This document shows positions 30,137 through 51,095 of a stretch of 64,000 nucleotides of DNA, piece by piece; position 1 is the stretch's first letter; each line of letters starts with the position of its first letter. The notes under the pieces were generated by a model. That model saw nothing but the letters and a program-made list of their open reading frames with translations. It was not told where the DNA came from and searched no databases. Source of the DNA: Verrucomicrobiota bacterium. Its GTDB lineage: Bacteria; Verrucomicrobiota; Verrucomicrobiia; Chthoniobacterales; UBA10450. A program made the translations under genes and the position numbers. Location of the stretch: assembly GCA_003220055.1 (NCBI GenBank), contig QHRF01000083.1, positions 564 to 64,563 on the forward strand, in the 5' to 3' direction.

Positions 30137-30646
30137 TCAAGACTGCTTCGAGATCTTGCGTGCGAGATAAGCCGAGAAATAGCCGGCGTATTTCCTTTGC
30201 AATTCCGGCTTTTGCCAATCCTTGCCCGTCAGGACTTTCCGGCAGCTATTGGCGCCGCAATTGCATTCGACCGAGTAATCATCGTCATCGGTCATCGCCC
30301 AATCGTGGGTCAGTTCTTCGCCCGCGCGAATCTCACACATGGCGACGAACGTGATCTCACCGCGGAGACCAAGGTTCGGATCGCAGGAATGATTGCTATA
30401 CAACATCGACAATTCTCTTTCGACGGCATTCACCGGCGCGATGAACAAATTGTCGTCGATCTGGATTTCGACCGGCCCGAGGGTCGGCGTGATTTCGCGA
30501 CGCAAAGTTTCGCGGTCGACAATGTGCCCACCTTTCACGAGGACGACCTCGTCTTGGGCGATGTCTGCTTTGGCAAATAAACCGCGCCCATGGATTTTGC
30601 TCTCGCGCACTTCCGTTTTCAGTGAGCGATAAGACAGCGGTGTCAT
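30137..30646 (-). CDS. SET-domain protein (putative protein-lysine N-methyltransferase)
   Basis: KIHGRGLFA..., YSNHSCDPNLG, ELTHDW, post-SET-like CNCGANSCRK. The ATG at 30646 (MTPLSYR) is preferred; the longest ORF reaches 30667. Confidence 0.8.
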   Translation of the reverse strand: MTPLSYRSLKTEVRESKIHGRGLFAKADIAQDEVVLVKGGHIVDRETLRREITPTLGPVEIQIDDNLFIAPVNAVERELSMLYSNHSCDPNLGLRGEITFVAMCEIRAGEELTHDWAMTDDDDYSVECNCGANSCRKVLTGKDWQKPELQRKYAGYFSAYLARKISKQS

Positions 30647-30652
30647 TAGAGA

Positions 30653-30736
30653 AGTGACGAGCGACAACTGGCGAGTGACAAGAGAAAAAATTGCTGCTCT
30701 TCTTACTCGTCACTCATCGCATGTCACTGGTCACTA
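30653..30736. promoter_or_regulatory. Imperfect palindrome built from GTCACTn heptads, filling the SET/MFS divergent spacer
   Basis: Left arm AGTGACg AGCGACa ACTGGCg AGTGACa (30653-30680), 12-nt centre aaaaaattgctg (30685-30696), right arm CTTACTc GTCACTc ATCGCAt GTCACTg GTCACTa (30702-30736). The 11-mer CTCGTCACTTC (minus strand, 30661-30651) is identical to metK leader 25754-25764. Confidence 0.6.
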
Positions 30737-32475: not shown

Positions 32476-32498
32476 TCGCGCGACCACTGCGTTCTGCT

Positions 32499-32575
32499 TG
32501 TAGGGCAACCGCTTCTGCCAGTCCGGCGTCGGACTTGTCGCTTTTCCAGCCGGCAGGCGAGGCGCCTGCCCTACA
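32499..32575. repeat. REP-like element (TGTAGGGCA...TGCCCTACA outer stem with inner hairpins)
   Basis: Outer 9-bp inverted repeat. Inner GGCAGGCG-agg-CGCCTGCC (32552-32570) and GTCCG-gcgt-CGGAC. Related to 37251-37274. Confidence 0.65.
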
Positions 32576-32582
32576 AACAGAA

Positions 32583-34237: not shown

Positions 34238-35302
34238 ATGCATCGGTTGCCGAAAATAAATTATTACGACATCGAGCGCATCATTGAGTTCGATTTCGTG
34301 CGCGCGACGGAAGCGGCCGCCCTCAATTCGCTCCGCTGGCTGGGGCGAGGCGACAAGGAAGCGGCCGATGCGGCCGCGTGCGATGCCATGCGCGGCATGT
34401 TCGATCTGATGAATATCTGCGGCGAAGTTGTGATCGGCGAAGGAATCAAGGACGACGCCCCCGGAATTTTTAAAGGCGAACAACTCGGCACCTGGGTCCC
34501 GGGCGCGCCCCAGTTCGACATCGCGATCGATCCGATTGACGGAACGACGAACATTTCCAAGGGCGCGCCGAACTCGATCAGTTGCATTGCGGCCGCGAGT
34601 CCGGAGGAAGGCGTCAAAGTCGCGCTCCGCGATGTGCCCTCGTTTTACATGTCCAAGCTGGCGTATGGACCGCGCGTGATTCAGTACATGCAGAAGCGGG
34701 GGGATTCGCTCAACATCGACATGCCTATTTCCGAAGTGCTCGCCATCGTTGCGCGGGCAACCGAGAAACGCGTCCAGGACCTCGCCGTGATGATGCTCGA
34801 CCGCCCGCGGCATAAGGAAATCGTGGAACAAATCCGGGCGTGCGGCGCGACGCTCCGGATGATCGGCGATGGCGACATTGCCGCGGCCATGGCGCCGTCA
34901 CTTCCCGAATCCGATGTCGATCTTTACATGGGCATCGGCGGCTCACCCGAAGCGGTGCTGGCGGCGGCGGGGATCAAATGTCTCGGCGGCGAGATGCAAT
35001 GCAAAATGTGGCCGCGCGATGATAAGGAGCGCAAACAACTCGTCGACGACGGCAATGAAAAGGACCTCGAGCGCGTTTACACGGCGGACGATCTCGCCCA
35101 GGGCGAGAATATCGTTTTTTGCGCGACCGGGATCAGCGACAGCGCCCTTTTGCGCGGGGTGAAATCAAAAGGCACGACTGCGATCACCCATTCCATTTTG
35201 ATGCGGGCCAAAAGCAAAACCGTCCGGCTCATCCGCGCGATGCACAATTTGCAGAACAAAACGATCCGGCTACGCTCCGACAACCGAGAACATTTGATTT
35301 GA
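34238..35302 (+). CDS. glpX: Class II fructose-1,6-bisphosphatase (GlpX type)
   Basis: FVRATEAAALNSLRWLGRGDKEAADAAACDAM, IDPIDGTTNISKG, GIGGSPEAVLAAAGIKCLGG. Confidence 0.9.
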   Translation: MHRLPKINYYDIERIIEFDFVRATEAAALNSLRWLGRGDKEAADAAACDAMRGMFDLMNICGEVVIGEGIKDDAPGIFKGEQLGTWVPGAPQFDIAIDPIDGTTNISKGAPNSISCIAAASPEEGVKVALRDVPSFYMSKLAYGPRVIQYMQKRGDSLNIDMPISEVLAIVARATEKRVQDLAVMMLDRPRHKEIVEQIRACGATLRMIGDGDIAAAMAPSLPESDVDLYMGIGGSPEAVLAAAGIKCLGGEMQCKMWPRDDKERKQLVDDGNEKDLERVYTADDLAQGENIVFCATGISDSALLRGVKSKGTTAITHSILMRAKSKTVRLIRAMHNLQNKTIRLRSDNREHLI

Positions 35303-35310
35303 GTTTCCCA

Positions 35311-35394
35311 CCCGCGAATTACGCGAATGAGACGAATTCTTAAGAGAGAAAGCTTTTGCCTTCGATTTTTCGTGTGATTCGCGTCATTCGCGGG
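35311..35394 (+). repeat. Structured intergenic element X1 (18-bp stem enclosing 48 nt; TTTCGTGT next to the 3' arm)
   Basis: cccgcgaattacgcgaat (35311-35328) pairs 17/18 with attcgcgtcattcgcggg (35377-35394). Homologous in layout to 50181-50260. Confidence 0.65.
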
Positions 35395-35459
35395 CATCTT
35401 TCTCGACTCGACAGACGTGCAGAAGCTATTGCAAGATCAACCTTGAACCTCCGCCGCTT

Positions 35460-35858
35460 ATGAGACAAATACCGAAAACCGAATTGTCGCCGGATAACGG
35501 CTGTATTATCGACATGAAGTGGAAACTGGGGTCGCTCGGATATCACGCCAGCGCGGCCGGCAAAGAAGCTGCGCCCGCTTCCAAGGAAGCCATCCGACTG
35601 CCCGAGCTCGTCCTTTATGATCACATTGGTTTCAAAGGTGCCTACGCGCGGACGAACTTGAGCTTTCATTATATCGGCGATTTCTGGAACGACCGGATCA
35701 GTTGTCTGATCGTGGTCAGCGGTGTCTGGCGATTTTATCGGGACGAATATTACAAAGGCCCGCACTGGGACCTCGGCCCCGGCTATTACGAAAGTTTTTT
35801 CGCCGCCAAAGGCCCTGACGACGTGGTCAGCTCCTTCCAGTGCGTCGCGCTGACGTAG
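35460..35858 (+). CDS. Beta/gamma-crystallin-fold domain protein
   Basis: Two Greek-key signatures YDHIGFKG and YRDEYYKG, with NDRISCLIV / DVVSSFQCV. An internal ATG at 35514 is also possible. Preferred over the antisense ORF 35340-35765. Confidence 0.65.
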   Translation: MRQIPKTELSPDNGCIIDMKWKLGSLGYHASAAGKEAAPASKEAIRLPELVLYDHIGFKGAYARTNLSFHYIGDFWNDRISCLIVVSGVWRFYRDEYYKGPHWDLGPGYYESFFAAKGPDDVVSSFQCVALT

Positions 35859-50160: not shown

Positions 50161-50180
50161 GACGATAATGTTTCAGATTT

Positions 50181-50260
50181 CGGCTAAATACGCCAACGAC
50201 ACGAAAGATTCACGGGATTCAATTTTCAAATCCTTTGGCGTAATTTGGCGTGTTTAGCGG
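50181..50260 (-). repeat. Structured intergenic element X2 (16-bp stem enclosing 48 nt; TTTCGTGT next to the 3' arm on the gene-sense strand)
   Basis: cggctaaatacgccaa (50181-50196) pairs with ttggcgtgtttagcgg (50245-50260): 14 Watson-Crick pairs, 1 G-U, 1 mismatch. The interior begins cgacacgaaagattc. Confidence 0.65.
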
Positions 50261-50276
50261 ATACCAGCCTCAAACA

Positions 50277-51095
50277 TCAAACTTTATGGGCAAAGAACGG
50301 ATTGTGTCGCTTCTCTTCCCGGACGCTCGTCATCGGCCCGTGACCGGGACAAATGATCGTTTCATCCGGCAAGGTCAGAATTTTCTCGAGATTGTTTCGA
50401 ACCGCGTCTTTGTAGGAAACGGTCCCGCCACCCATCGAGCCGGCAAAAAGCGAGTCGCCGACTATCGCAATCGGTCGGGCGAGGCCGGTCACAACGAACG
50501 TCATTCCTCCCGGCGAATGCCCCCAGGTCAACCGTGCTTCGATCTGGATCTTGCCGACGCGAAATTTTTTTCCGTCATCGATTGTTTCCGCTGCCGGCAC
50601 CGGTTCGCGCGCCGGAGCAAAAACTTCGGCGCCGGTCTCTTCGCGCAGTCGCGGCAAATCGGCGACGTGATCGGAATGGGCATGGGTGAGCAAAATCAAG
50701 CTGATGCTGAGATTTTCTTTCGTCGCCAGTTTTAGCATTCCGGCGCAATCTGCGCCGGTATCAAATGCGGCCGCGTGTTTCGTTGCCGGGTCCCAAACGA
50801 GATACGCATTGACCAGCATCCCGCCGTAACTGGTATTGGATTGGGCAAGCCCTTCGAAATTCTCGAGCTTGTCCGGTTTCCATTTACGCTGCGCAAGATA
50901 GACCAGTGCGTCCGCGTCGAGATCCAGGACCGGCGCGATCGTGCGCAAAGTCGCTTCGTCCGCTTGCCCATCGCGCGCTTTACGAATTGCTTCCGCTCTC
51001 AAGCCGGATTTCTTCGCAAGTTCGCTATCGGAAATGCTCAAACCGCGTTGCGCTTTGCCGACGATGTCCCCGATGTTGTCTTCCAGTTCAATCAT
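50277..51095 (-). CDS. MBL-fold metallo-hydrolase with an N-terminal HTH-like extension
   Basis: THAHSDHVADL metal motif and a glyoxalase-II-like core, preceded by ~70 aa resembling an XRE-type HTH (LSISDSELAKKSGLRAEAIRKARDG). Confidence 0.75.
   Translation of the reverse strand: MIELEDNIGDIVGKAQRGLSISDSELAKKSGLRAEAIRKARDGQADEATLRTIAPVLDLDADALVYLAQRKWKPDKLENFEGLAQSNTSYGGMLVNAYLVWDPATKHAAAFDTGADCAGMLKLATKENLSISLILLTHAHSDHVADLPRLREETGAEVFAPAREPVPAAETIDDGKKFRVGKIQIEARLTWGHSPGGMTFVVTGLARPIAIVGDSLFAGSMGGGTVSYKDAVRNNLEKILTLPDETIICPGHGPMTSVREEKRHNPFFAHKV

Follow-up and report, generated by a model that had tools for sequence, protein, structure and literature searches.

What keeps the two arms of an intergenic hairpin complementary when their sequence differs from copy to copy? 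The question is raised by two elements in the window (the whole 64,000-nt stretch of DNA analysed here): X1, an 84-nt hairpin on the plus strand, 3' of glpX (35311-35394), and X2, a hairpin on the minus strand (50181-50260). A sequence-only reading had proposed a dedicated structured RNA, namely a processing site, a terminator or an sRNA. The comparisons presented here favour another answer, to which a probability of about 0.7 is given: X1 would be a gene-less copy of a dispersed palindromic repeat with heptamer-built arms and an associated nuclease gene, and X2 a copy from a sister sub-family. Elements were searched for by k-mer and Smith-Waterman genome scans and in ortholog sets; the window's own genome (G000) comprises 2.08 Mb in 148 contigs and is 80% complete.

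Architecture of the hairpins and their class

The stem of X1 is formed by CCCGCGAATTACGCGAAT (35311-35328) and ATTCGCGTCATTCGCGGG (35377-35394), which pair at 17 of 18 positions around a 48-nt interior, as first described; the sole mismatch is T.C, and the stem extends inward via ACGAA/TTCGT. As RNA, X1 has a predicted folding energy of -41.2 kcal/mol (z = -5.75), and none of 200 dinucleotide shuffles was as stable. X2 follows the same plan, also as first described: 50260-50245 pairs with 50196-50181 in a 16-position stem (14 Watson-Crick pairs, one C.A and one C.C) around an interior of 48 nt. The C.A becomes G.U on the plus strand, where the fold reaches -30.5 kcal/mol (z = -4.7) vs -27.3 kcal/mol (z = -3.3) on the minus strand. 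The equal interiors are real for this pair and no strict rule: the X1 ortholog of a close sister genome (G001, locus L002) has 46 nt. Neither element matches Rfam at the gathering score, and relaxed thresholds return chance hairpin matches only (best mir-3140, 22.6 bits vs a gathering score of 93).

Both elements are built of three plus three phased units, with a period of 9 nt in X1 (arm periodicity 0.71 at lag 9). The full layout of X1 is CCCGCGAAT-TA-CGCGAAT-GA-GACGAAT ... TTCGTGT-G-ATTCGCG-TC-ATTCGCGGG, and that of X2, in gene sense, is TCCGCTAAAC-ACGCCAAAT-TACGCCAAA ... TTTCGTG-TCG-TTGGCG-TA-TTTAGCCGA (Table 1). The unifying point is that the X1-type and X2-type unit has a 7-base core, C-R-C-N-R-A-N, followed by about two spacer bases, with CC-R-C at the outer end. 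The units within one element change together. An 8-mer, TTTCGTGT, had been noted as abutting the 3' arm of X1 and of X2. Both do contain it, 1 nt (X1) or 2 nt (X2) ahead of the arm, and it is not enriched in the window (4 occurrences vs 3.2 expected); since the arms are built of phased 7-base units, it is the degenerate innermost (third) arm unit.

Table 1. Features of the window around X1 and X2, and loci elsewhere that carry the same or related repeats.
Feature	Position	Strand	Remarks
glpX (class II fructose-1,6-bisphosphatase)	34238..35302	+	Pfam PF03320, E = 1.2e-113; X1 begins 8 nt past the stop codon
X1 5' arm	35311..35337	+	Units CCCGCGAAT (35311-35319), CGCGAAT (35322-35328), degenerate GACGAAT (35331-35337); period 9; outer end CCCGC
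X1 loop	35338..35368	+	Unconserved even vs the close G001 ortholog L002
X1 3' arm	35369..35394	+	TTCGTGT (35369-35375), ATTCGCG (35377-35383), ATTCGCGGG (35386-35394)
Conserved block CTCGACAG (N17-18) CAAGAT ... CCTCCGCCGCTT-ATG	35407..35459	+	Downstream edge of the variable slot
Beta/gamma-crystallin-like gene	35460-35858	+	Downstream of X1 and the conserved block
X2 3' arm, gene sense	50180..50206	-	TTTCGTG, TTGGCG, TTTAGCCGA
X2 5' arm, gene sense	50234..50261	-	TCCGCTAAAC, ACGCCAAAT, TACGCCAAA
Outer-array remnant GTTTGAT GTTTGAG	50269..50282	-	MBL-fold hydrolase stop codon falls within it; X2 lies inside the array
X1 5' arm type elsewhere			GxxExxY cassettes of sister genomes: L092, L099, L107, L191, L194, L201, L202, L210
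X2 5' arm type elsewhere			G000 C37:18563, C11:27867; GxxExxY cassettes of sister genomes: L093, L096, L109, L192, L193, L198, L203, L205, L209
PF05635 genes in the X2 slot of sister genomes			L024, L028, L031 (GTTTGAN/NTCAAAC); also L030, L038, L041
Palindrome TGTCATTCCGAGCGAAGTCGAGGAATCTCT ... AGAGATGTCTCGACTTCGCTCGACATGACA			G000 C110:561, C139:1310, C60:36098, C122:3547, C134:1600, C119:22620, others

X1 and X2 belong to a populous class in G000. A stricter catalogue holds 41 heptamer-built hairpins, and a k-mer detector finds 49 vs 3-8 in shuffled genomes. Each arm consists of 2-4 phased 7-base units with the inverse units on the opposite arm; the unit varies by element, and others in G000 include CACGAAG, ACACGAAT, GAATGAC, ACAGGAT, ACAGAAT, CACAGAT, CAGGAA, CTCAACG/GTTGAG and GTGAC. 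Loops range from 13 to 87 nt across this wider class, and whole gene-less elements of the X1 and X2 types measure 59-85 nt (median 83). Further copies, whose existence the sequence-only reading had left to be checked, do occur: two more of each type bring the count in G000 to three apiece, the X1-type ones lying at C113:7520 and C36:5327, and all their loops are unrelated. It had also been argued that X1 and X2 fit a MITE poorly because their terminal repeats differ; this argument falls away, as the two represent separate sub-families, each with near-identical arms at other loci.

The class shows no preference for a transcriptional context. In the catalogue of 41, 22 spacers are co-directional, about 10 divergent and 7 convergent, roughly 2:1:1 as for any spacer, and members often lie within 20 nt of the flanking genes. 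In 33 of the 41 the 5' arm is A-rich and the 3' arm T-rich. Because this property is the same on both strands of a palindrome, the orientation of an element relative to genes is unreadable from its arms, and the earlier claim that X1 and X2 share one orientation relative to their flanking genes has no definable meaning. G000 separately holds ordinary short A-stem-T terminators and several families of GTAG REP repeats.

A predicted nuclease gene between the same arms

In sister genomes, arms of the X1 and X2 types bracket a small gene of the GxxExxY family (about 125-140 aa; TIGR04256, E = 1.5e-37; Pfam PDDEXK_3), of which genomes of the genus carry 1-10 copies. Since the same arms bracket the same gene there, arms and gene form one cassette lineage. 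The likeness can be close: the right arm of locus L202 (G033), ATTCGTGTCCATTCGCGTCATTCGCGGG, matches that of X1, TTCGTGTGATTCGCGTCATTCGCGGG, except in the innermost unit and the spacer belonging to it. The proteins of X1-type and X2-type cassettes are 76-84% identical. The proposed kinship of X1 and X2 is thereby borne out, their arm types bracketing sister lineages of one GxxExxY gene that occupy the same slot between nuoK and nuoL.

The function of GxxExxY proteins has been listed as unknown (PMC3424549). In their alignment D63, E73 and K75 are invariant, and the AlphaFold model (pLDDT 96.4) finds its best PDB fold match in Cas4 SSO0001 (E = 6e-5, TM-score 0.62), followed by other PD-(D/E)XK nucleases; a sequence search against PDB chains gave no match.

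Bracketing by inverted heptamer arrays is common around such genes and rare elsewhere. It is found at 17 of the 26 GxxExxY loci sampled in the genus, and at 26 of 30 sampled genes of a second family, PF05635 (23S_rRNA_IVP, four-helix bundle; 0-18 genes per genome in the genus); only 3 of 250 randomly chosen genes reach the bracketing score. Beyond the genus, 54 of 79 usable GxxExxY loci are bracketed by inverted repeats; these 79 come from Verrucomicrobiota, Acidobacteriota, Planctomycetota, Bacteroidota, Chloroflexota, Gemmatimonadota, Proteobacteria and methanogenic archaea. At 37 loci the upstream arm holds at least two C-R-C-N-R-A words (CACAGAG, CGCAGAG, CACGGAG, CACAGAT, CGCGAAT, CGCCAAG), and 19 of the 54 have the CC-R-C-N-R-A end within 14 nt, in a sample biased toward relatives of the query. 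No paper was found in the literature that links GxxExxY to such repeats or describes the cassette class.

Two GxxExxY genes of G000 have gene-less counterparts with the same arms: C11:3414, C52:23660 and C108:10137 for the gene at C144, and C134:4090 for that at C140. When G000 was scanned for inverted arrays that enclose a gene (loops of 121-3000 nt), C140 alone gave a convincing case and most other hits were chance; C144 was identified through homology. This 80% complete genome yielded no GxxExxY gene whose arms are of the X1 or X2 type, and X1 is therefore without a visible cognate partner there.

PF05635 cassettes have some features of their own. Their unit types at loci L051-L080 include GTGAYCA, GTTGATA, GTTGAGN, GTGACGA, TAAGAAT and GATTGCA among many. 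The right array often reaches the ATG of the next gene, and the stop codon of the open reading frame overlaps that ATG. The sole PF05635 homolog in G000 (C138:38917-39330) lies between two FtsX-type permease genes; TTCGATA occurs three times after the gene, and the inverse array upstream is weak (score 16). Within the window, a GTCACT/GTGAC palindrome between SET-methyltransferase and MFS genes (30640-30727) resembles the PF05635 cassettes L061, L076, L077 and L080 in arm polarity and unit type (GTGACNN ... NNGTCAC), which makes it a probable gene-less copy of that cassette type.

These cassettes bear on the suggestion that the hairpins arise in place, by slipped-strand duplication of a 7-mer and inverse copying through template switching, X1 and X2 being independent products. 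It would account for the joint change of units within an element and for unit numbers that differ among orthologs, as heptamer number does among Coxiella strains (PMC4990558). The outer array at the X2 slot (GTTTGAT/GTTTGAG) opens with the ...GTTTGA stop region of the hydrolase gene itself, a sequence also present at the empty locus L027. Against local origin, three-unit arms recur almost unchanged, with their spacers, at unlinked loci and in other genomes, and some arm types cross phyla (e.g., CGCGAAT units at the Planctomycetota locus L117). The arms also travel with one gene lineage, and 62% to 87% of sampled GxxExxY and PF05635 genes are bracketed vs about 1% of other genes. We regard in-place origin as quite improbable.

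How X1 itself relates to the gene-bearing cassettes is less simple. A likeness by eye between TTTGCCTTCGA and TTTCCTTCTGA had suggested a deletion derivative; it scores within the shuffled range, and the candidate was dropped. All 11 gene-less loops compared are no more similar to the 5' and 3' ends of the cargo genes than shuffled loops are, so that an origin of X1 by gene deletion is unproven. By analogy with REPINs or NTS repeats, the gene-less hairpin may instead be the primary unit.

Variable slots and a probable constraint at the DNA level

The slot behind glpX was followed from the stop codon to the CTCGACAG block in 22 syntenic genomes of the genus, whose glpX products are 90-95% identical. 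It is hypervariable, with six heptamer types in all. X1-type arms occur in three genomes (G000, G001, G031), CGCGGAT/CACGGAT in five, CCGGATA in four, ACAGGAT and TCGAAAT in three each and ACAGAAT in one. In two genomes (G017 and G016; loci L007 and L014) a GTAG REP stands in place of the heptamer hairpin, and in G033 the slot holds almost nothing. The block that follows (35407-35459) is kept in 17 of 19 genus loci, with a variable slot ahead of it. That this block is a promoter is something we only infer; a promoter scan left it unflagged. It contains no Shine-Dalgarno sequence before the crystallin-like gene, and CCTCC precedes the ATG. A second glpX is found on another contig of G000 (C81:948-2006), its product 87% identical to that of the window copy; it may be a paralog or reflect strain heterogeneity in the bin.

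The slot of X2, at the junction of the MBL hydrolase and dehydrogenase genes, varies as well. Six sister genomes have it empty, with the flanking genes overlapping at ATGA, and others hold GAATGAC-type hairpins. In six genomes it contains a gene for a 125-aa PF05635 four-helix-bundle protein (E = 6.9e-17) between inverted arrays, either GTTTGAN...NTCAAAC or AAGATGT...ACATCTT; L037 is the only locus that resembles such a cassette with its open reading frame deleted.

Such turnover within a slot also bears on whether the arms are operator or iteron arrays for a host regulator of glpX or of the downstream gene. In favour of this, the sites of multimeric DNA-binding proteins typically show phased repeats of such spacing (a period of about 9 nt) in a palindromic layout. 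Yet about a dozen unit sequences coexist within one 2-Mb genome, the same slot holds different units in sister species whose flanking genes are 91-95% identical at the protein level, and copies adjoin unrelated genes in every orientation. An operator function is, in consequence, extremely improbable.

The junction between nuoK and nuoL provides a natural experiment among congeners, being empty, filled with either arm type or scarred. Across 21 genus genomes (L191-L211) it is empty in nine, X1-type in five, X2-type in six and a scar of 16 nt, ATCCGCGAAAAAA, in one (G006). Empty junctions have a 4-nt stop/start overlap, TTGA; filled ones carry a GxxExxY cassette of about 480 bp, and nuoL then starts at a new ATG and not at the overlapping TTG. 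Close sisters differ: G010 is filled vs G036 empty, and G003 is X2-type vs X1-type in G011. Mapped onto a tree built from the neighbouring nuoL DNA, the junction states require at least nine changes (shuffled mean 10.3), whereas arm type requires a single change on a tree of the cassette interior from which the arms were excluded. Arms and cargo are therefore co-inherited and discordant with the host, and this discordance in turn implies that the site has repeatedly gained, lost or exchanged its cassette, whether through transposition or allele recombination. Presence and absence at this junction could reflect homologous recombination of alleles and not transposition. No repeat that would mark a target-site duplication flanks X1 or the copies on C113 and C36; at nuoK-nuoL, TGA stands on both sides of the cassette, yet TGA is also needed there as stop and start.

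The differences between arms are compensatory, as had been proposed for X1 and X2. Over 22 aligned arm pairs, 82% of cells pair vs 71.8 +/- 1.1% after shuffling, a level reached by none of 500 shuffles, and 29-43% pair when one arm is shifted along the other. The covariation, whose significance had been left to be assessed, scores 0.308 vs 0.141; both sides have changed in 19 of 28 pairs. An RNA stem under selection would be expected to tolerate G.U far better than A.C. The cassettes behave otherwise: read in the orientation of the cargo gene, the arm mismatches of 46 cassettes (1518 columns) comprise 62 G.U vs 59 A.C (p = 0.86). The lack of wobble bias, the unconserved loops and the lack of a preferred context together suggest that complementarity is kept at the DNA level.

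These numbers weigh directly on the view that X1 is an RNA maintained by selection on transcripts (a stabiliser of the glpX 3' end, an RNase III site or a terminator), with X2 as an intercistronic element. Much about X1 is in keeping with it. The fold is very stable (z = -5.75), the arms covary, and the element runs from 8 nt past the glpX stop codon to just before the conserved block. Some heptamer hairpin fills the glpX slot in 18 of the 22 syntenic genomes, and a REP hairpin in two more. G000 encodes RNase III, and this enzyme cuts the heptamer-containing stem of the Coxiella intervening sequence (IVS) at its first GACAGAT heptamer (PMC4990558). In opposition to these points stand the equal numbers of G.U and A.C mismatches, the unconserved loops, the Rfam matches no better than chance and a slot that elsewhere holds other heptamer types, a GTAG REP or almost nothing. 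Divergent gene pairs, between which a 3' end is not expected, enclose about a quarter of the class. The genome has ordinary short terminators of another form. With a loop of 32-48 nt and a 3' tail (CAUCUUUCUC / CATCTTTCTC) that has no U-tract, X1 does not fit the intrinsic type (G+C-rich stem, short loop and a U-tract directly 3'), and only an inner 6-bp sub-hairpin is flagged as terminator-like. Cassettes with the same arms lie between nuoK and nuoL, inside the essential nuo operon, a location that speaks against the arms being efficient terminators. Selection on a transcript is thus unlikely to be what maintains X1, and a dedicated structured RNA is not supported as its best explanation.

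When glpX is transcribed, X1 must still fold as an RNA hairpin of -41 kcal/mol. The hairpin may act as a barrier to 3' exonucleases, or RNase III may cleave it as in the Coxiella 23S rRNA IVS; any such consequence is regarded as a side effect and not as the reason for the element's existence. For the hunting of RNA motifs this holds a caution: covariation between the arms of a palindromic repeat need not mean that an RNA is under selection.

Under the favoured reading, in which X1 is a gene-less copy of a nuclease-associated repeat, the two arms would each copy a single recognition word that is read in the DNA itself, and complementarity would persist on that account. The most likely reader would be the predicted GxxExxY nuclease, acting on duplex ends or on the folded single strand, on the model of RAYT on REP and Ssn on NTS. 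Gene-less copies such as X1 would be either mobilised in trans or fossils. A fuller version can be put forward tentatively and is more doubtful than not: GxxExxY proteins would be the enzymes of a hitherto undescribed kind of selfish element, each lineage recognising a phased heptamer word of its own in the two arms, cutting there and so copying cassette and gene-less hairpins alike (X1, X2 and about 40 more in G000) into gene junctions, with arm word and nuclease specificity co-evolving; a parallel system based on the four-helix-bundle protein would explain 23S rRNA IVSs as well as the bacterial heptamer repeats that have long lacked an explanation. If nucleases do read their own arms, they would represent a new source of sequence-programmable nucleases, and an origin for rRNA intervening sequences would be at hand.

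Relation to known repeat systems and other palindromes

The heptamer-armed GxxExxY hairpin element is a working class, unnamed in print, and kin of the REP/RAYT, Ssn/NTS and IVS systems. It supplies a context for two very large families, GxxExxY/PDDEXK_3 and PF05635, whose genes sit inside heptamer inverted repeats that have many gene-less copies.

Intervening sequences of 23S rRNA (Coxiella burnetii, Leptospira; S23p/PF05635) resemble the cassettes in that an inverted-repeat stem surrounds a small selfish open reading frame. In Coxiella, 2-3 tandem GACAGAT heptamers precede the S23p frame, the number varying by strain (PMC4990558), and inverted heptamer arrays similarly surround 26 of the 30 PF05635 genes sampled in the genus. 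X1 differs in its position, in the spacer between two protein genes (glpX and the crystallin-like gene) and not in a 23S rRNA helix, and in having no open reading frame; moreover, its arm type goes with the GxxExxY gene and not with PF05635.

Like REP and REPIN sequences, the class consists of many-copy short intergenic palindromes, mostly gene-less, with sub-families each specific to one small cognate enzyme gene, which the repeats also flank; a GTAG REP even occupies the slot of X1 in two sister genomes (L007, L014). In contrast to these repeats, X1 lacks the GTAG head and has three phased heptamers per arm in place of one imperfect stem, and the gene of its class has a PD-(D/E)XK fold, whereas RAYT is a Y1 (IS200/IS605-type) transposase.

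The Ssn/NTS system comprises genes for small GIY-YIG single-stranded DNA nucleases and hairpin repeats that are also dispersed without the gene (PMC11893778). There, the hairpin repeat cleaved by the enzyme stands on both sides of 42% of ssnA homologs (PMC11893778). The parallels are a nuclease gene flanked by hairpin repeats, dispersed gene-less copies and repeat variants that match nuclease variants. The nuclease superfamily and the repeat architecture are different, and cleavage by Ssn has been shown by experiment, whereas GxxExxY is known here from sequence and a fold model.

With MITEs (Correia, ERIC, RUP, Nezha), X1 shares its small size (84 nt), its intergenic position and multiple copies, terminal inverted repeats without an open reading frame, gene-bearing partners with the same ends, and sites both occupied and empty. 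Differences are that its class has no DDE transposase partner and no clear target-site duplication, and that its arms are arrays of 7-base units drifting in concert. Nor does X1 display the internal deletion of a full-length element that is typical of MITEs, its loops comparing with cargo ends as shuffled loops do.

Short phased 7-base arrays in intergenic regions and near start codons are also seen in the cyanobacterial STRR and the TAACTGA repeats of Beggiatoaceae (PMC4679880). These are direct arrays, with one inverted case among 170 sets, and neither a hairpin nor an associated nuclease gene has been described for them. Integron attC sites were considered as well and rejected: GTTGAGC/GCTCAAC units fit GTTRRRY/RYYYAAC, and most units do not.

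Several other palindromes occur alongside the class. REP-like families with a GTAG head (AGGTAGGGGCG..., TTGTAGGGCA..., CTGTAGGGGAAGC..., TGTAGCTGCCGCC...) are found in the window at 32492-32582 and in G000 at C37:5181, C76:10429, C117:5500, C51:46161 and other positions. Short, perfect spacer palindromes of the form ACTTGAC-N-G-N-T (3 nt) A-N-C-N-GTCAAGT lie at C139:2162, C30:11314, C58:38458, C98:22835 and C28:4245 of G000 and look like operators of one dimeric regulator. A separate repeat family, a palindrome of about 90 nt (TGTCATTCCGAGCGAAGTCGAGGAATCTCT ... AGAGATGTCTCGACTTCGCTCGACATGACA), has at least 10 copies in G000 (Table 1).
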